Sequence record: MT446420.1
Source of the DNA: Escherichia virus TH54
Direction: 5' to 3' (one strand)
DNA: 64,000 nt
Shown: one piece after another, positions 10,680 through 17,888 of the stretch
Position numbering within the stretch: the stretch's first letter is position 1
Layout of the letters: every line of letters begins with the position of its first letter
Notes under the pieces: model-generated
Told to the model about the DNA's origin: nothing
The model's input: only the letters and a program-made list of their open reading frames with translations
Database searches by the model: none
Program-made: the position numbers and the translations under genes

Positions 10680-11708
10680 CTAAACTTTTGCGTACTTCGA
10701 AAGTCGCATTCTCGCCATCAGCCCTTGAGCAACGTTATCGGCCATATATGATTCGATTTGTTCAGGGGTTGCACCCTCCGATTTAACCATCTCATTTATG
10801 TCTTTAGTATGCCATGGTGCATTGTCCCAGAACATAACAGCTTCGCCAGCTTCAACGAGTTTCTTCATACGTTTAATCGTATCCGGATGTCTTGGCTCGT
10901 TGTCCATTACCCATACTCGGGTTTCAGCATAAGGAACGGCTTCCAATGCTAATGTTCCACCGGTTATCGCAATGCTGTTAGGGATAAACAAACTATCAAT
11001 CGGACCTTCCATTACCCACACGCGCTTGCGCTCATCAATCTTGTCTACGCCATAGACTTTGGAAGCTTCTGGGTGAGCTTTGATTGTGATATATTTTTGT
11101 GGTGCATCTTTGCGAAGAGCTCGTCCTTGGAAAGATTCGATTTCTTTTTTGCCGTTGAAGATAGGAATAACCAAGCGTGGTTCATTCGTTTCATTCTTAT
11201 ACGTCCCAGGATTAACGGAGTTAACTAATGCAGGCCATTTGTTTGTAAACCATAACCGGTTCCAAACATTGCTCGGAATACACCGACTTTTAACATACTT
11301 AACTATCGGATGCGCTTCTGGTAAAGTATCGATTCTTTCGCAAAAAGCAAGCTCTTCAATAACCGGAGTTTTTTCTGGTTCTTTCGGAGTTTCTGCAACT
11401 TCATTACGTTGTCGACCGAAGGCATTTTCCTTGTACTTCTCAACCATATATTCCCGGTGCAAATCCGGCTCAAACTCTTTTATGTATTTGCTTATATGCG
11501 TGGAGTAGTCACAGTTAAAACATTTCACGTAAACCGCACCATCAGACGGATTGGTATACGCCCAGAATCGAGCCTTATGTGAATCTTTCTGGGAGTCCCC
11601 GCAAACCTTACAACGACAGTTTGCTTTAAATGTGCTCCCGGTGACTTCTCTATAACGTGGTTGATACGATAAAGCTCTGACTGCAAATTCTTTATCAATA
11701 TATGACAT
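10680..11708 (-). CDS. 61: DNA primase
   Basis: 342 aa; N-terminal Cys4 zinc ribbon; resemblance to T4 gp61. Confidence 0.9.
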   Translation of the reverse strand: MSYIDKEFAVRALSYQPRYREVTGSTFKANCRCKVCGDSQKDSHKARFWAYTNPSDGAVYVKCFNCDYSTHISKYIKEFEPDLHREYMVEKYKENAFGRQRNEVAETPKEPEKTPVIEELAFCERIDTLPEAHPIVKYVKSRCIPSNVWNRLWFTNKWPALVNSVNPGTYKNETNEPRLVIPIFNGKKEIESFQGRALRKDAPQKYITIKAHPEASKVYGVDKIDERKRVWVMEGPIDSLFIPNSIAITGGTLALEAVPYAETRVWVMDNEPRHPDTIKRMKKLVEAGEAVMFWDNAPWHTKDINEMVKSEGATPEQIESYMADNVAQGLMARMRLSKYAKV

Positions 11709-11729
11709 AGTTTCCTCATTTCAATGGCC

Positions 11730-11898
11730 CCGAAGGACCATTATACTGTAGGTTTATCGTCTTTATTCTTACGCTTTTTTGATGGGATTTGTTCAGGGCC
11801 TTTATTGACAACTGCTCCGGAAGTGGTACCTGTTGCGATATTAGTTGGGTTTCCACCTGCATCACCGGCAACCATATCTTCGTTGATAAAATCTTTGA
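11730..11898 (-). CDS. small hypothetical protein with internal-protein-like N-terminus
   Basis: Hand translation MKTFKDFINEDMVAGD...; not in track (under 60 aa). Confidence 0.3.
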
Positions 11899-11927
11899 AT
11901 GTTTTCATAACACCCCCTTTCCGCTAT

Positions 11928-12119
11928 TTATACAACGAAGATAGCTTTATCACCATTTGCATCAGTCACTTCATAAGTGTCTTCATGATACAACGGAATA
12001 ATCCAGGTAACACCATCATCAGCGATAACATGGATTGCTTCTTGGTCTTGCGACACGATTTCATATTCTTCAAAAATCTGGAAGACCGAAATCTTAGAGC
12101 CCGTACACATTGCACTCAT
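11928..12119 (-). CDS. hypothetical protein
   Basis: 63 aa acidic ORF. Confidence 0.35.
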   Translation of the reverse strand: MSAMCTGSKISVFQIFEEYEIVSQDQEAIHVIADDGVTWIIPLYHEDTYEVTDANGDKAIFVV

Positions 12120-12315
12120 ATTGTTCCCTTCTTTTAATCAATTGACGATGTGCCTTTTTAAGCTTACGAATCTGACGTTTAGTCGGTCGCGCAACGTAAG
12201 CTTGTGTAGTTACTCGTCCAAAAACACCATACTTAGGCGAAGGAGTATCAATAAAGACTTCCCACTGGCAAGAGTAACTATATATTGCTTTAGAGAATTG
12301 GGTCAAAACAAACAT
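12094..12315 (-). CDS. hypothetical basic protein
   Basis: 73 aa. Confidence 0.35.
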   Translation of the reverse strand: MFVLTQFSKAIYSYSCQWEVFIDTPSPKYGVFGRVTTQAYVARPTKRQIRKLKKAHRQLIKRREQYECNVYGL

Positions 12316-12316
12316 A

Positions 12317-12676
12317 TTAACCTCGCTTCATGAAGGCATTAAAAATCTGGTCATCAATATCAGTAGGCAGTTCTTGAGCTTTAACCCAAGCCCCTTCCAG
12401 AATGTCATTTGCTTCAGTAGATATCATGACCCCAATTTCAGGGTTTCCGGTTATCCATGCTGCACAATCGCGTACATTCTTTTTATCAAATGGATAGCCA
12501 CGAGTATCTTCATAAGGTCCACTCATTACCATAAATGAGCGAGCCTTTATGATAACATCATCTTTAACGATAATATAACCAATCGCCTGATTAAACCGAG
12601 GCTCACGAAATTCATAACGGGCATTACCATTATTATTGCTCACCAGTTCAAAATTCAGAAAATTATAATAACTCAT
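12317..12676 (-). CDS. hypothetical protein, paralog pair member (C-terminal DDQIFNAFMKR)
   Basis: 119 aa; last 11 aa and the underlying DNA nearly identical to the next gene. Confidence 0.5.
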   Translation of the reverse strand: MSYYNFLNFELVSNNNGNARYEFREPRFNQAIGYIIVKDDVIIKARSFMVMSGPYEDTRGYPFDKKNVRDCAAWITGNPEIGVMISTEANDILEGAWVKAQELPTDIDDQIFNAFMKRG

Positions 12677-12677
12677 A

Positions 12678-13118
12678 TTAATCTCGCTTCATGAAGGCAT
12701 TAAAAATTTGGTCGTCAACTGAATATACAGGGGTTTCCAGAAGTTTCAAAAGACTGTTTTTAATGTACTTACCCGGGATACCCATATTAACAATACTGTC
12801 ATTCAATTCATTATCAGGGTTGATGTCTTTAAATTCAAACCCATCAAATTCAACCTTGTCAGGAATACCATCAGCGAAAAAATAAACCAATTGGTGCATT
12901 GTATTGCGCGAAAATAATTTAGACTTGACCGCAATAAGTTCTTGCCAATGGTTTAATTCTTTGTTAAGAAGTTTATGAGCAAACGTAATTCTATTATCAC
13001 TATCAACAAGAAAATAACCCAGGTATTGAATGGGTTCGTCGCTCCAAAACATCCTGTATGCTTGTGCATTTTGATTTTTACAACGAAGTTTTTTGATAAC
13101 TAAATTTCTGTTAATCAT
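12678..13118 (-). CDS. hypothetical protein, paralog pair member (C-terminal DDQIFNAFMKR)
   Basis: Track ORF trimmed to ATG 13116-13118 immediately after the spackle stop. Confidence 0.5.
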   Translation of the reverse strand: MINRNLVIKKLRCKNQNAQAYRMFWSDEPIQYLGYFLVDSDNRITFAHKLLNKELNHWQELIAVKSKLFSRNTMHQLVYFFADGIPDKVEFDGFEFKDINPDNELNDSIVNMGIPGKYIKNSLLKLLETPVYSVDDQIFNAFMKRD

Positions 13119-13119
13119 T

Positions 13120-13413
13120 TTATTCACCTGTAACCCATTGAACAATCTTGCTGTTGTCAAATGAAGCATCGCAATACAGAACATAGTTATACTGCATAAC
13201 GTCACCAGAAGCCAGTTGGTCAGATACTTCTTTAACCATATCTGGGCGGTCACGTTTAGTAATATTCATGATATCAGCATAAATCTGATGTTCAACATCA
13301 GTCTGGTCAGCAGTCATAGACCACTCACAAAGGTCTTTATCAAGTCCAGCGGTTACAGGAGCTGTACCACATGATGCTACGGTAAGAATTGCCGCGATTA
13401 ATAACTTTTTCAT
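13120..13413 (-). CDS. sp: spackle periplasmic protein
   Basis: 97 aa with signal peptide; DKDLCEWSMTADQT...MQYNYVLYCD resembles T4 Sp. Confidence 0.8.
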   Translation of the reverse strand: MKKLLIAAILTVASCGTAPVTAGLDKDLCEWSMTADQTDVEHQIYADIMNITKRDRPDMVKEVSDQLASGDVMQYNYVLYCDASFDNSKIVQWVTGE

Positions 13414-13440
13414 TTCAATCTCCTCAGTAGTTGATAGGGA

Positions 13441-13471
13441 TAATATACTGCATTATCCCTTTGTTGTACAC
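13441..13471 (-). promoter_or_regulatory. early-type sigma70 promoter
   Basis: Reverse complement GTGTACA-N16-GTATATTAT then CCCTATCAACTACTGAGGAG leader. Confidence 0.45.
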
Positions 13472-13813
13472 TTATTTTTCACCTTCAACTGAAAAACCGG
13501 TCAAGTTGTAATATTCAGCACGTGCAATATGAAGAGCTGCTTCAATATCAGTAAGGCAGATTTCTTCATTTAACAGTTGCGCTTCAACGGTCAAAATCAG
13601 ATTACGCAATGCGGTACCCTTACGCATGTCTACTTTATGAATTAGCTTGTCATCAACAAAAGCTTCAACAAGTGCATTATAGTTATCAGCAGTCTTCTGA
13701 ACATACCAGTGAATACCTGCGGGATGGAACATACTTGAGCGCTCAAAAGATGGAACGCCAACAGCACTCACTTTGATTGTTACTTTTACGCGGTCTTCTG
13801 GATTAAAAGCCAT
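13472..13813 (-). CDS. Dmd-like paralog
   Basis: 113 aa; segment ADNYNALVEAFVDDKLIHKVDMRKG parallels the Dmd core of the adjacent gene. Confidence 0.5.
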   Translation of the reverse strand: MAFNPEDRVKVTIKVSAVGVPSFERSSMFHPAGIHWYVQKTADNYNALVEAFVDDKLIHKVDMRKGTALRNLILTVEAQLLNEEICLTDIEAALHIARAEYYNLTGFSVEGEK

Positions 13814-14026
13814 TTAGATTTCCTCAGATAAGTGGATACGATAATCACATTCAAAAACTTTATTGTCATTAACAAAGGCTTTCACCAGCGCATTATTCAC
13901 CTCTGCATACTGCACCGTAACCCATTCAATCATTTTTTGGTCACTAACATCCAGCGCGGTTTCTTTGGTAAACATATTACCATTTTCAAACCAACCAATA
14001 AACACTACGTTCTCTAATTTATACAT
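13814..14026 (-). CDS. dmd: Dmd antitoxin
   Basis: 70 aa; VVFIGWFENGNMFTKE...VQYAEVNNALVKAFVNDNKVFECD resembles T4 Dmd. Confidence 0.8.
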   Translation of the reverse strand: MYKLENVVFIGWFENGNMFTKETALDVSDQKMIEWVTVQYAEVNNALVKAFVNDNKVFECDYRIHLSEEI

Positions 14027-14344
14027 TTAGATTTCCTCACAAAACGCCCAGTCTGCGTGATAAACTGTTGCGCCTTTAGTATCATTTAAACAAACCACGT
14101 CAACAGGTGCAATCACACGATAAAGACGGGGTTCTCCTCCATACGAGCGAGCTGCTCTTCCTGCATAGATACGCGCCAAACCAATATCTTCAGTAAAAAA
14201 CACACGCCCTAAATTTTTCTTACGCCCAACTTCTGACAGAACACCAGTTGCATCAGGAGGGCAAAGCATATTTTGGATTCCAGCATTAGAGCTTGAGCCA
14301 TGGTAATAAACTTTGTATTCTGCCTTGCAATCAATGGTTTTCAT
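14027..14344 (-). CDS. hypothetical protein
   Basis: 105 aa; YYHGSSS and GRAARSYGGEPRLY motifs; no confident family call. Confidence 0.5.
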   Translation of the reverse strand: MKTIDCKAEYKVYYHGSSSNAGIQNMLCPPDATGVLSEVGRKKNLGRVFFTEDIGLARIYAGRAARSYGGEPRLYRVIAPVDVVCLNDTKGATVYHADWAFCEEI

Positions 14345-14370
14345 TTTATTCTCCAGTAGTTGATAGGTCT

Positions 14371-14399
14371 ATAATAACACAACTAACGGAGAAGTAAAC
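14371..14399 (-). promoter_or_regulatory. early-type sigma70 promoter
   Basis: Reverse complement GTTTACT-N15-TATTAT then CCTATCAACTACTGGAGA leader. Confidence 0.45.
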
Positions 14400-14403
14400 T
14401 GTT

Positions 14404-14781
14404 TTAGAGATGATTGCAATAAGCAGTCCATTCAACATGGACCTTTTCACCATTAAAATCAAAAGCGATAATACGAGCGGCTTCATCTACATACTTATAC
14501 ATGTGATGGAAACTAACAGGAATATATTCACCTTTTCGGCAAACCATGATTTTATCGCCTTTAAACAAGGCTAAGTCATCATAAATCTCTTTAAGGCCGA
14601 TGAAATCGATTTCACGACCACGTCTGCCTTCAATCTGGATAATAGCTTTACCTGGGTAAAAATCGTAGGCGATTGGTACATTAGCTCGTGGAGCCAGGAT
14701 AACGAATTCAATTGCATTTTCAGAGAATTCTACATTTACGGATTCAGTGATTGCTTTAACGATGGCTTGTGAAAAGTTCAT
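14404..14781 (-). CDS. hypothetical protein
   Basis: 125 aa; own promoter upstream. Confidence 0.5.
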   Translation of the reverse strand: MNFSQAIVKAITESVNVEFSENAIEFVILAPRANVPIAYDFYPGKAIIQIEGRRGREIDFIGLKEIYDDLALFKGDKIMVCRKGEYIPVSFHHMYKYVDEAARIIAFDFNGEKVHVEWTAYCNHL

Positions 14782-14820
14782 AATAATTTCCTCTTAGTGC
14801 GTATTTGATTTACAAGGTCC

Positions 14821-14850
14821 ATAGTACCACGCCCATGTGGTAGTGTAAAC
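14821..14850 (-). promoter_or_regulatory. early-type sigma70 promoter
   Basis: Reverse complement GTTTACA-N17-TACTAT. Confidence 0.45.
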
Positions 14851-14925
14851 ACTTATTGTAAGCGAATATCTTTAACCTTACCTACAGTTTCACAATTATC
14901 ATGCCTACAGGAGATGTAAACCCCT

Positions 14926-14951
14926 AAAAACAAAAAAGGAGCCAAAGCTCC
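14926..14951 (-). terminator. rho-independent terminator after gene 41
   Basis: Hairpin GGAGCUUUGGCUCC directly after the stop codon, followed by UUUUUUGUUUUU. Confidence 0.6.
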
Positions 14952-16391
14952 TTAAAATTTGATAGATGCTGCTAAATCGTCCAAATCGCTTCTATTAACA
15001 CGCGTCTGACGATTGACCTCGGCTTGACGATTCATCTCACCGGTGGCTTCTTTAACCGTAGGACCTTGTTTAGGAGCTGAATCATCATCAACCTCGTACC
15101 AGCGCTGATTACCTTTCTTAACACCCATCTTGAATTTATTATAGTAGTTTTTATCGCCATAACGAGACTTAAGTTGTTTGATTAACTGCAGCCCCATTTG
15201 AGCGAATTCTTCGGTCTCAACAACACCCAACATAAAGTCAGCCGTGTGAGCAATACCAAAGGATTCTGCGATGTCAGCCATATCAATCTCAGCTGCAACG
15301 TTCGCGCCCCTGGTTGTCTGCGCTGCAGTCCACAGGACTACATTTTTCTCGACCGCCAGACCGCGAAGTTCTTCTGCGACCATCTTAATCAGGCCGTAAC
15401 TGTTTTCGGTAAACGTTTTCAGTCTTGAGCTTGCACAGATTGCCAGGTAGTCAACAATAATCACATCTGGCACAAACCCTTGCTTCAGCTTGTACTCGTT
15501 CAGTAATGCACGGAAGGTATCCGCATGAGCACCACCGGTTGGATATTGTTTTATCTTCAGAGTCCCGAGAGTCCCGGAAGCTCGCCATTTTTCCATCTTA
15601 CTTTTGTATTCTGCCCATGACATATGACCTTCATCAATATCATCCAGAGATACATCCAGCAAGTTGGCATCAATACGTTTGGCACATACTTCTTCGGCCA
15701 TTTCCATGCTTATATAAAGAACATTATGACCAGTCTGAAGATAGTCAGCAGCTAACGAACAAAGTCCAAGGGATTTACCGACGTTTGTCCCGGCCAGTAA
15801 AACGTTCTCTGTACCGTACTCAACCCCACCTTTCGTAATTTTATTCAGGATGTTAATACGGAACGGAACTTTCTTCGATTTGTTCAGATAAGTCTGGAAT
15901 CGAGCCTCGTAATCGTTTAACCAGTCATGGCCAAGGGCAGAATCAAAACAGATGGACAATGCATCACGCATGATGTCAGGGATAGCACCGATATCCGGGA
16001 TTCGTTTATCACGCTTATCTTTCGGAAGTTCGGCATTACTCTGGATTTCGATAATCCTGGATGTGGCATTGAACATCGCAGACTTCTGTACATACTTCTC
16101 GGTTTCTCTGACCAACCATTCCTGGTCTTCTGGAGTATCAACCAGAGCTCCTAAGAGTTTCTTTGTGCCTTCATATTCGACTTCAGAAAGGTCAGAACTA
16201 TCGAGCGCAATATCAAGTGCAGTCTTAGTTGGTACCGCTTGATATTCTTTTACGTGTTCGTTAATCGTATTAAAAAGGGTCTTTGCGGGACCCTTTTCAA
16301 AATATGTGTTATTCAGATATGGCCAGACTTTAACAAAATATTCCTTGTTAAAGAGTAGCTGGGATAAAATAGTTTCTACCACTTCCACCAC
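14952..16391 (-). CDS. 41: replicative DNA helicase (DnaB-like)
   Basis: 479 aa; Walker A GTNVGKS; strong resemblance to T4 gp41. Confidence 0.92.
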   Translation of the reverse strand: MVEVVETILSQLLFNKEYFVKVWPYLNNTYFEKGPAKTLFNTINEHVKEYQAVPTKTALDIALDSSDLSEVEYEGTKKLLGALVDTPEDQEWLVRETEKYVQKSAMFNATSRIIEIQSNAELPKDKRDKRIPDIGAIPDIMRDALSICFDSALGHDWLNDYEARFQTYLNKSKKVPFRINILNKITKGGVEYGTENVLLAGTNVGKSLGLCSLAADYLQTGHNVLYISMEMAEEVCAKRIDANLLDVSLDDIDEGHMSWAEYKSKMEKWRASGTLGTLKIKQYPTGGAHADTFRALLNEYKLKQGFVPDVIIVDYLAICASSRLKTFTENSYGLIKMVAEELRGLAVEKNVVLWTAAQTTRGANVAAEIDMADIAESFGIAHTADFMLGVVETEEFAQMGLQLIKQLKSRYGDKNYYNKFKMGVKKGNQRWYEVDDDSAPKQGPTVKEATGEMNRQAEVNRQTRVNRSDLDDLAASIKF

Positions 16392-16720
16392 CTCTTTTTC
16401 ATTTTAATCTTATCAATTTCATCTTGTATTTGCATTGTAACACACTTTTCTACATGCACTGCAAGCTCCGCTTTGCGGTCTTCAGAAGGGGTGCCGAAAT
16501 CAACTGAAACTTTTCCAGATGGTTCAATTTTAATTCCGGTTACGTACACGATGTGATTGGACCCATCAGGGAGTGATAACAGAATTTCCTGTCGCACAGT
16601 TCCCATGGATTGCCGGATAATCTCCAAACTTTTTTCGTAGTAAGGTACAGAAGGAGCCTTAGCTCCCTCCGCATCTTTCTCGAAATTATCTAAATCAGAT
16701 AAATCGATATCATTCATCAA
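16376..16720 (-). CDS. 40: gp40-like protein
   Basis: 114 aa between 41 and uvsX as in T4; size match. Confidence 0.6.
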   Translation of the reverse strand: MMNDIDLSDLDNFEKDAEGAKAPSVPYYEKSLEIIRQSMGTVRQEILLSLPDGSNHIVYVTGIKIEPSGKVSVDFGTPSEDRKAELAVHVEKCVTMQIQDEIDKIKMKKRWWKW

Positions 16721-17888
16721 GGTCTTCCATCATATCTAAATCGTTTTCGATATCTGCTGCAGATGGTTTTGCCTTACCTTCAGGAGCAGAGTATTTTTCA
16801 ACCTTGGAGGCAATAAGCGCATCAACTTCGGCATCAACAACAGCATTGCTATCAATTGCACCCAGCTGGTAATGACGTTTGATTGCGTCACGGAAAGGTT
16901 CGTGCTTGAACAACGGACCCCAGAATTCAGTACAGTTAGTATCTTTTGCACGCCATGATTTTTCTTCGCGGACCATTTCACCGGTCTCAACATCAAGATA
17001 TTCACGGTTATACCAACCAACTTTCGGTTTCACTACAAATCCGATTTCCATTGCCATATCAAGCAGGCCAGAATATGGGTCAATACCACCATCGAATTTT
17101 ACATCAATGAAGAATTTACTTTTCTCTTTGACCATACGAGATTTTTCGGCATTCAGAACAAATTGGAAACCTTCAAGTTCTTTACCAGTTTCTTTAATCT
17201 GGCGTTTGCCGATAATGAATACGGTGTCCGCAGAATACATAACACCTGTACCACCGGTCATAACGGTTTTGCTATACATCTCAATCGTCTCGATTGTATG
17301 GTTAACCGCGACACAAGGAATATCCTTGATACTAAAATATGGGGTAACAATACGGAACAGAGATTTCAGGGATTTAGCACGAGTCATATCGCCAACGACT
17401 TTTTCGTTCATCGCATCTTCTGTTTCTTTTTTTGACGCCATGTTACCGATTGAGTCAATAAAGATAATGACTTTTTCACCACGCTCAATTGCTTCAAGCT
17501 GGTTAACCATATCAACTTTCAATTGTTCAACCGACTGGATTGGTGTGTGGATAACACGCTCCGGGTCTACTTTCATTGCACGCAGATAGGCTTCTGTGAT
17601 ACCAAATTCTGAATCATAGAACAAACAGATTGCTTCGGGGTATTTGTTCATATATGCAGAGACCATCGTTAAACCCATATTGGATTTAAAGTGTTTTGAC
17701 GGACCAGCAAAAATAGTCAAACCTGACTGCATACCACCATCTAGTGCACCGCTGATTGCAATGTTCAGCATCGGGATTTTTGTACGAACTACATCTTTAT
17801 CATTAAAAAACTTGGACTTAGTAAGAGTCGCAGTCATTTTGGATGTAGAAGCTTTAATCAAACGGGATTTCAAATCTGCAATAGACAT
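16710..17888 (-). CDS. uvsX: RecA-like recombinase UvsX
   Basis: 392 aa; DLKSRLIKASTSK...GPSKHFKSN; strong resemblance to T4 UvsX. Confidence 0.92.
   Translation of the reverse strand: MSIADLKSRLIKASTSKMTATLTKSKFFNDKDVVRTKIPMLNIAISGALDGGMQSGLTIFAGPSKHFKSNMGLTMVSAYMNKYPEAICLFYDSEFGITEAYLRAMKVDPERVIHTPIQSVEQLKVDMVNQLEAIERGEKVIIFIDSIGNMASKKETEDAMNEKVVGDMTRAKSLKSLFRIVTPYFSIKDIPCVAVNHTIETIEMYSKTVMTGGTGVMYSADTVFIIGKRQIKETGKELEGFQFVLNAEKSRMVKEKSKFFIDVKFDGGIDPYSGLLDMAMEIGFVVKPKVGWYNREYLDVETGEMVREEKSWRAKDTNCTEFWGPLFKHEPFRDAIKRHYQLGAIDSNAVVDAEVDALIASKVEKYSAPEGKAKPSAADIENDLDMMEDLDE

Follow-up and report, generated by a model that had tools for sequence, protein, structure and literature searches.

The 64,000-nucleotide stretch of Escherichia virus TH54 analyzed here (record MT446420.1; hereafter, the window) carries four small open reading frames (ORFs) between the helicase gene 41 upstream and the spackle gene sp downstream. 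One of these ORFs encodes the toxin inhibitor Dmd, and the gene that follows it, here called ORF113 for its length in residues, opens with a domain (residues 1-65) that sequence comparison identifies as a real but distant Dmd homolog. The region is most likely a lineage-specific Gaprivervirus version of the known counter-defense (anti-toxin) island located between genes 41 and 61. In the reading that we favor, with moderate confidence, ORF113 would act as a Dmd-type toxin blocker, the 105-residue product of a neighboring gene (ORF105) would be a host-directed ADP-ribosyltransferase (ART), and repeats at the gene junctions would serve as recombination substrates. In T4, the island comprises dmd, tifA (61.4), sp (61.3) and adfA (61.2), and Dmd itself is a textbook phage-encoded mimic of bacterial antitoxins. 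Of the T4 inhibitors, Dmd blocks RnlA and LsoA, TifA blocks ToxN, and AdfA blocks DarT.

The initial annotation, made from the sequence alone, had called the 70-residue gene of the block a clear dmd, and profile searches agree. The protein matches the Pfam Dmd family (PF17587) with an expect (E) value of 4.2e-20 (72.3 bits, against a cutoff of 27) and the PHROG Dmd family at 4e-33; the VR20 and VR7 records annotate this gene as dmd, and the protein, at 57% identity, is the ortholog of T4 Dmd (gene 61.5; structures 5HY3 chain B and 5I8J). ORF113 finds the same family. By BLASTP, it matches the window Dmd at 2e-6 and T4 Dmd, the sequence of which was verified, at 4e-8; the PHROG Dmd family is matched at 9e-6, alignment to Dmd with hhalign gives an E value of 2e-4, and a sequence search of the PDB returned 5HY3_B and 5I8J_A, both Dmd, as its sole matches. 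A hidden Markov model (HMM) built exclusively from 12 canonical Dmd proteins scored the ORF113 N-terminal domain at 24.6 bits, compared to a maximum of 13.5 among 20,000 shuffles of the domain, and when run over 3554 ORFs of 62 related loci gave no matches outside Dmd other than proteins of the ORF113 family. Every search that matched residues 1-65 gave Dmd alone.

Placed in the alignment of Dmd proteins, ORF113 residues 1-67 are colinear with full-length Dmd, and nine of the 19 invariant Dmd columns (V7, W35, A41, L47, V48, A50, D54, D61 and R63) are identical; at the remaining columns, four changes are conservative and the others polar. The retained residues correspond to the hydrophobic core and the terminal D-x-R, as in T4 Dmd, whereas T20, D29, N44, K49 and E59 are changed, the last two by charge reversal (K49E and E59K). 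A kept core and an altered surface fit a protein aimed at a different toxin, as had been proposed from the sequence. The domain is 23-30% identical to, and equally distant from, every Dmd type, as opposed to at least 45% mutual identity among the canonical proteins, indicating that ORF113 is an old or fast-evolving paralog rather than a recent copy. The earlier description of the gene as a Dmd-like paralog thus stands insofar as its similarity to Dmd persists in a proper alignment and against shuffle controls; it does not stand as a plain second copy, since Dmd is a single domain of ~60-70 residues whereas ORF113 continues into an unrelated 48-residue module. Identity of ORF113 with a conserved T4 61.x gene was considered and rejected: none corresponds in the T4 record, where the equivalent position holds only tifA, and the TifA homolog of the window sits at 12094-12315.

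Several observations weigh against assigning Dmd activity to ORF113. The match to Pfam Dmd reaches 19.1 bits (E of 0.0017), which is under the family cutoff, and covers residues 34-64 only; the hhalign probability is just 47%, and both the HMM and the hhalign local alignments extend only over the C-terminal half of the domain. On the Dmd-only model, the ortholog from VR7 reaches just 12.4 bits (E of 0.022). Because several invariant Dmd residues are gone, toxin binding may be gone as well. An AlphaFold2 (AF2) model of ORF113, computed from three sequences (ORF113, one 98%-identical homolog and the window Dmd), has a predicted local distance difference test (pLDDT) score of 38.6; the low value reflects the three-sequence alignment, and the model is too poor to confirm a Dmd fold (a three-stranded sheet plus a helix) for ORF113.

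These points invite the view that ORF113 lacks Dmd-like activity, being either a remnant of a duplicated dmd, decaying or neutral, or a gene that resembles Dmd by chance. The sub-threshold Pfam score, the low identity, the alteration of ten of the 19 invariant positions, the unconfident model and a narrow distribution would all agree with this view: by tblastn, ORF113 occurs in 14 phage records, as a VR20-like type (95-100% identity) and a type found in VR7 and VR25 (62%), and is labeled ‘hypothetical’ in every annotated record. (The protein homolog search gave a single cluster; the VR7 type was recovered by the tblastn search of phage records.) The reading frame, however, is intact in both lineages, which are ~61-62% identical, and comparison of the window with VR7 gives a proportion of synonymous differences (pS) of 0.73, at saturation, but a nonsynonymous proportion (pN) of only 0.25, equivalent to a dN/dS ratio of ~0.12 and thus to purifying selection. 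Chance resemblance, for its part, is hard to square with a score far beyond the shuffle distribution, with Dmd being the only family or structure matched, and with retention of precisely the hydrophobic core and the terminal D-x-R. We therefore regard an inactive remnant as unlikely. On the favored account, an old dmd duplication would have been followed by fusion to the C-terminal module to yield ORF113, which, judging from its sequence, would most likely bind and block an RnlA/LsoA-like HEPN RNase toxin, or some variant of such a toxin, that lies outside the reach of canonical Dmd.

The module itself (residues 66-113) has the pattern ...LILxVExxLxNxE..ICxSDIE..AR.EYY..TG.SVEGEK, with an invariant ...SVEGEK end. 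A version of ~46 residues is found as a free 50-residue gene at the equivalent position of Dhakavirus ESCO10, also recovered by tblastn, and as the C-terminus of a 174-residue protein in Phapecoctavirus phiWec179; the module travels independently among phages. It belongs to a PHROG with no assigned function and has no Pfam match.

The second main component of the block is the product of ORF105, which we predict, on the basis of its modeled fold and of sequence profiles, to be a minimal (96-105 residues) ADP-ribosyltransferase related to Arr. The AF2 model of this protein (pLDDT of 86) adopts the ART fold, a Foldseek search with it returned Arr as the top match (probability 1.0), and the best fold and profile matches overall are Tpt1, AcrF11 and Arr. 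The H-G-[ST] motif on the first strand and the nicotinamide-stacking aromatic residues of the fold are present, in a register that agrees with the YHGT and IYF elements of Arr. All 58 diverse relatives compared share H15, G16 and Y60, and nearly all share F49; a GRKKNL..VFFT.D..LA.IYAGRA block is invariant in the family. A YYHGSSS motif and an Arg-rich patch had been pointed out in this protein previously, but without a family; both are indeed there, and are the most conserved parts of the protein family, and a family can be assigned (Arr/Tpt1/AcrF11-like ART). Other annotators label the family ‘ADP-ribosyl transferase’, and a literature search found no experimental work on this enzyme.

Among solved proteins, Arr (PF12120; 2HW2, 9IAF and 9IBA) is the nearest relative, and both are very small ADP-ribosyltransferases. 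Their motifs stand in register: YHG[ST] (YHGS in ORF105, YHGT in Arr), (V/I)(F/Y)(F/I)(T/S) (VFFT in ORF105, IYIT/IYFS in Arr), a helix with an aromatic residue, and a strand. Unlike Arr, ORF105 carries Phe rather than Tyr at position 49, is 38 residues shorter (105 compared to 143), and has nothing past Arr residue ~82-90, the alignments spanning Arr residues 13-82 only, which make up the NAD-binding core. AcrF11 (6KYF) and Tpt1/KptA (9LD3 and 7KW9) resemble ORF105 in fold alone, at 20-21% identity over 76 residues and with no sequence-level relationship found; ORF105 also lacks the N-terminal RNA-binding lobe of Tpt1.

The family is very well conserved and widespread, with 115 protein clusters down to 52% identity from phages of Escherichia, Klebsiella, Acinetobacter, Aeromonas, Serratia and Vibrio. 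When 1.8 billion representative proteins were searched with a profile, 243 relatives were returned, many of which are domains of proteins 2,000-4,000 residues long that also contain the Pfam ART-PolyVal domain; in four of eight such large proteins checked, Pfam calls the matching domain Arr-ms (PF12120), and 20 of 58 short relatives match Arr-ms as well (best E value, 1.4e-8). A wider-family profile run against the PDB found Arr alone (2HW2 at 8.6e-4; Arr-2 at 0.014). Some results speak against the assignment. The window protein has no Pfam match at E values up to 1, Arr-ms included, and a profile restricted to the T4-type enzymes had no PDB matches, such that Arr is reached only through the wider family. 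Moreover, there are two candidates for the third catalytic residue, which is acidic or Gln in ADP-ribosyltransferases of the H-Y-[EDQ] type: E103, conserved in at least 90% of the T4-type subfamily but not beyond it, and position 88 (D/E), a candidate equivalent of the catalytic Asp of Arr, which is variable.

Several further observations concern the setting of ORF105-like domains. The domain occurs in very large phage ‘polyvalent’ proteins (P0130, P0147, P0127, P0146 and P0177) beside a second ADP-ribosyltransferase domain, ART-PolyVal; in P0147, it directly precedes a NUDIX domain, which hints at ADP-ribose or NAD-cap chemistry, and in P0177 it is found together with GNAT and Toprim domains. 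The neighbors of a divergent homolog (P0114) are a block of unannotated phage genes. In 185,579 bacterial genomes, the ORF105-type enzyme was matched four times, twice on phage-like contigs of 167-178 kb and twice on short contigs of metagenome-assembled genomes, none of which offers an informative bacterial context. The two long contigs (L065 and L066, one filed under Flagellimonas marina) resemble T4-type phage genomes within bacterial assemblies and carry a T4-type ADP-ribosyltransferase.

How might ORF105 function alongside its neighbors? ORF105, dmd and ORF113 abut with no gap between genes, an arrangement that suggests a single operon, and a promoter-like site ahead of ORF105 probably drives all three. 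ORF105 and dmd share a stop/start junction, TAAATG; hence, they would be co-transcribed and probably translationally coupled. Our preferred reading is that, soon after infection begins, ORF105 would use NAD+ to ADP-ribosylate a host target, as a host-takeover or counter-defense step in the manner of AcrF11, a precedent that makes a counter-defense role plausible by analogy; the basic GRKKN and GRAARS patches of the protein would suggest a phosphate-rich substrate.

An alternative is that ORF105 is a toxin held in check by Dmd, perhaps with ORF113 as a second antitoxin, the whole forming a phage-borne type II toxin-antitoxin module. The two genes are adjacent and co-oriented behind one upstream promoter-like site, the toxin-first order is that of rnlAB, and the order ART-then-Dmd recurs in Mosigvirus, Dhakavirus and Gaprivervirus. 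A ‘p0068-family ART + Dmd’ toxin-antitoxin pair has moreover been predicted, with the ‘p0068-like’ family listed among the commonest viral ADP-ribosyltransferases (Iyer, Burroughs, Anantharaman and Aravind, 2022, Viruses 14:1977; PMC9503650). ORF105-dmd agrees with that pair by description and context alone (T4-type phages of Escherichia, Shigella and Salmonella), and ORF113 does not appear in the searched passages of that paper. Gene neighborhoods nonetheless argue against such a module. Of 56 ART loci on viral contigs, 11 are immediately followed by a Dmd-like ORF, and each of these belongs to the E. coli Tevenvirinae type, whereas the other 45 have none within 3 kb and are neighbored by unrelated families; no other downstream partner is conserved at ART loci. 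In phages of Yersinia, Edwardsiella and Enterobacter, the ART directly follows gene 41 and there is no Dmd. The ranges of the two proteins also differ: 609 T4-type phage records, which extend from Escherichia to Vibrio and include phages of Klebsiella, Acinetobacter and Aeromonas, carry the ART (53-100% identity), whereas Dmd is found in 797, all enterobacterial Tevenvirinae and mostly T4-like, the majority of which, by match counts, probably lack the ART. Dmd, finally, already has a proven host target. Since neither protein needs the other, an obligate toxin-antitoxin pair is improbable, although the two may still interact facultatively.

We attach a similarly low probability to a further reading, in which ORF105, dmd and ORF113 would form one unit. 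Here, the Dmd fold would be a general inhibitor scaffold that acts on host HEPN RNases and also on the phage’s own ART, which Dmd, ORF113 or both would restrain or steer; alternatively, the ART would covalently disable the very RnlA-type defense that the Dmd proteins block by binding, or the RNA targets of that defense. If true, this arrangement would make a three-part phage system of enzyme and inhibitors, centered on an ADP-ribosyltransferase smaller than any other known.

Two other possibilities are less probable still. The first, that ORF105 acts as Arr does, by ADP-ribosylating a rifamycin-type small molecule to guard the host RNA polymerase needed early, draws on Arr being, in both profile and Foldseek searches, the closest relative with a solved structure, on the short relatives that pass as Arr-ms, on one GenBank record that reads ‘rifampin ADP-ribosyl transferase’ and on the interpretation given to true actinophage Arr genes by Aravind’s group; yet the window protein is itself unmatched to Arr-ms and spans just the NAD-binding core, its relatives reside in injected polyvalent effector proteins, and its strongly basic, conserved loops are ill-suited to a hydrophobic ansamycin; a rifamycin substrate is unlikely. 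The second, that the activity of ORF113 resides in the C-terminal module and that the Dmd-like domain is a mere carrier or targeting element, accords with the higher conservation of the module (71% identity between the window and VR7, compared to 53% for the N-terminal domain), with its invariant end and with its existence as a free gene and on an unrelated protein, but is equally doubtful, as the module matches no family of assigned function and as faster change of the N-terminal domain is just as expected from an arms race at a toxin-binding surface.

Duplication of dmd, the event that our favored reading places at the origin of ORF113, has local precedents. Direct repeats of 21 nucleotides (D3) bracket dmd exactly, with a spacing of 213 nucleotides that equals the length of the gene; each comprises a Shine-Dalgarno (SD) sequence, a stop codon and a start codon, and the repeat forces an ...EEI C-terminus on both the ORF105 protein and Dmd. 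The same ...EEI endings appear in related phages with two dmd copies. From its sequence and position, D3 is a likely substrate by which dmd could be duplicated in tandem or lost. Tandem dmd pairs exist in the Dhakaviruses KIT01 (KIT01_034/035) and ABTNLsp5, where both copies are canonical (Pfam E values of 1e-14 and 5e-22) and unfused. Under selection, T4 amplifies the dmd-tifA segment in tandem (Srikant et al., 2022; PMC9391042). It is these tandem pairs, the T4 amplification and the repeats around dmd that provide the precedent. The window resembles the Dhakavirus pairs in having more than one gene of the Dmd fold (predicted, in the case of ORF113) in a row, in placing them behind the same promoter and in the ...EEI-stop-ATG junction, and differs from them in that ORF113 is much more diverged, is fused, and follows the A-type dmd instead of preceding it. 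As a separate observation, Dhakavirus Dmd proteins fall into two types, 67-residue ‘A’ and 64-residue ‘B’, that are only 48% identical and occur singly or in tandem across Dhakaviruses; this allelic diversification appears to be undescribed.

Repeats extend to the regulatory regions of the block (Table 1; promoter and terminator calls are consensus matches only). The three intergenic regions ahead of ORF125, ORF105 and sp share the layout GT(T/G)TAC..TAnnAT..CCT..ATCAA.TAC..GGAG, and part of the ORF105 leader recurs upstream of sp (repeat D2). An Rfam scan of positions 11500-16500 found no RNA family. The repeated SD-stop-start junctions, together with these promoter cassettes, would act as recombination substrates for duplicating or swapping the genes of the island. 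Between the window and VR7, the gene 41 protein is 98% identical with a synonymous divergence (dS) of 0.30, as opposed to dS values of 0.7 to >2 for the ART, dmd, ORF113 and sp; the genes of the island change and recombine at a much higher rate than those flanking it, with a sharp step in divergence at its border.

All genes from uvsX to gene 61 in this part of the window lie on the minus strand. The window derives from a Gaprivervirus (VR20/SP18-like) T4-type phage, its DNA being 94-99% identical to the Gaprivervirus phages TH15, PSD2001, VR20 and SP18 over positions 12300-~14382, a stretch that stops short of ORF125. The initial annotation had described positions 13472-14781 as an expanded dmd locus in which two additional genes, each with its own early promoter, separate dmd from gene 41, where T4 would have the two adjoining. 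All four ORFs were found at these coordinates, on the minus strand, with the block extending exactly from ORF113 to ORF125, and each of the two additional genes (105 and 125 residues) indeed lies behind its own early-type promoter-like site. The expectation for T4 is also correct, because the T4 record gives the order 41-dmd-61.4-sp-61.2-61.1-61, with dmd 58 bp after gene 41. Relative to T4, then, the locus is expanded, but it is not special to this phage: the order 41/ORF125-like/ORF105-like/dmd, as revealed by comparing the locus among related phages, is standard in Mosigvirus (ORF041c and ORF040c of RB69), Dhakavirus and Gaprivervirus. Of the whole arrangement, only the extended Dmd copy, ORF113, is new.

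ORF125 behaves as an exchangeable cassette. It matches a PHROG family without a function (10668; 4e-15) but has no Pfam, NCBIfam or PDB match by single-sequence or profile search, PDB matches at E values of at least 0.5 being noise. A 98%-identical copy is found only in Salmonella phage ABTNLsp5, 133 Mosigvirus-type records have homologs of ~36% identity, including ORF041c of RB69, at this position, and in VR20 and VR7 the slot holds an unrelated 100-residue gene.

Farther downstream, the window retains other parts of the T4 island. ORF113 and Dmd lie together in the early operon adjoining gene 41. The window shares with T4 the flanking genes 41 and 61, an early transcription pattern, a TifA homolog, spackle and AdfA tails, and differs by the addition of ORF125, the ADP-ribosyltransferase and the Dmd-like fusion, by displacement of the TifA homolog from its T4 place beside dmd, and by two shorter proteins with the AdfA C-terminus in place of one full-length AdfA. 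These tandem proteins, of 119 and 146 residues, carry the C-terminal tail of T4 AdfA (gp61.2, anti-DarT) behind N-terminal parts that are unmatched to AdfA, and a 45-nucleotide direct repeat (93% identical) stands at both gene ends (12313-12357 and 12674-12718). From their sequences, the pair may be AdfA-derived paralogs with different targets.

Table 1. Genes, domains, transcription signals and repeats of the island and its surroundings in the window.
Feature	Position	Strand	Description
uvsX	16710-17888	minus	ORF call
Gene 40	16376-16720	minus	ORF call
Gene 41 (helicase)	14952-16391	minus	Pfam DnaB_C match
Terminator-like hairpin and T-run	14936-14953	minus	directly after gene 41; 7-bp stem, 4 G-C pairs, tail TTTTGTTTTT
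T4-early-type promoter-like site	14821-14849	minus	upstream of ORF125; TTTACA, 17 nt, TACTAT, with TG
ORF125	14404-14781	minus	variable cassette gene; distant homolog of RB69 ORF041c
T4-early-type promoter-like site	14371-14398	minus	upstream of ORF105; TTTACT, 16 nt, TATTAT, with TG
ORF105	14027-14344	minus	predicted Arr-related minimal ADP-ribosyltransferase with conserved H15-G16-S17, F49 and Y60 and a basic GRKKN loop
Junction repeat D3, copy 1	14024-14044		ORF105 end/dmd start; GAGGAAATCTAAATG (SD, stop and start)
dmd (70 residues)	13814-14026	minus	canonical Dmd, antitoxin mimic against RnlA/LsoA
Junction repeat D3, copy 2	13811-13831		dmd end/ORF113 start; 19 of 21 positions identical to copy 1
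ORF113, whole gene	13472-13813	minus	ORF call
ORF113, residues 1-65	13619-13813	minus	putative diverged Dmd-like domain
ORF113, residues 66-113 and stop	13472-13618	minus	conserved C-terminal module
Promoter-like site	13442-13470	minus	upstream of spackle; bounds the ORF105-dmd-ORF113 unit downstream
Spackle (sp)	13120-13413	minus	Pfam T4_Spackle, 1e-43
AdfA-tail gene, 146 residues	12678-13118	minus	ends ...DDQIFNAFMKR[G/D]
AdfA-tail gene, 119 residues	12317-12676	minus	ends ...DDQIFNAFMKR[G/D]
TifA homolog, 73 residues	12094-12315	minus	T4 gp61.4, ToxN inhibitor; 39% identity, 1e-13; Pfam DUF7279
Gene 61 (primase)	10680-11708	minus	end of the small-gene series downstream of spackle

Taken together, the analysis confirms what the initial annotation had observed at this locus but supports its interpretation in part only, in that the layout is common to three genera, ORF113 is a fusion and ORF105 can be assigned to a family. 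The gain is incremental, since this type of locus, the two protein families and the role of the island were already known or predicted; the ADP-ribosyltransferase and its pairing with Dmd in particular are already recognized computationally in PMC9503650, which leaves the Dmd-like fusion as the new element. For the published prediction of an ART and Dmd toxin-antitoxin pair, the co-occurrence counts given above are a weakening result. ORF105, from a family of 96-105-residue proteins present in over 600 records of T4-type phages, would rank as the smallest of its enzyme class, and ORF113, with its core kept, its surface changed and a module fused to it, offers a natural test of how antitoxin mimics switch target.

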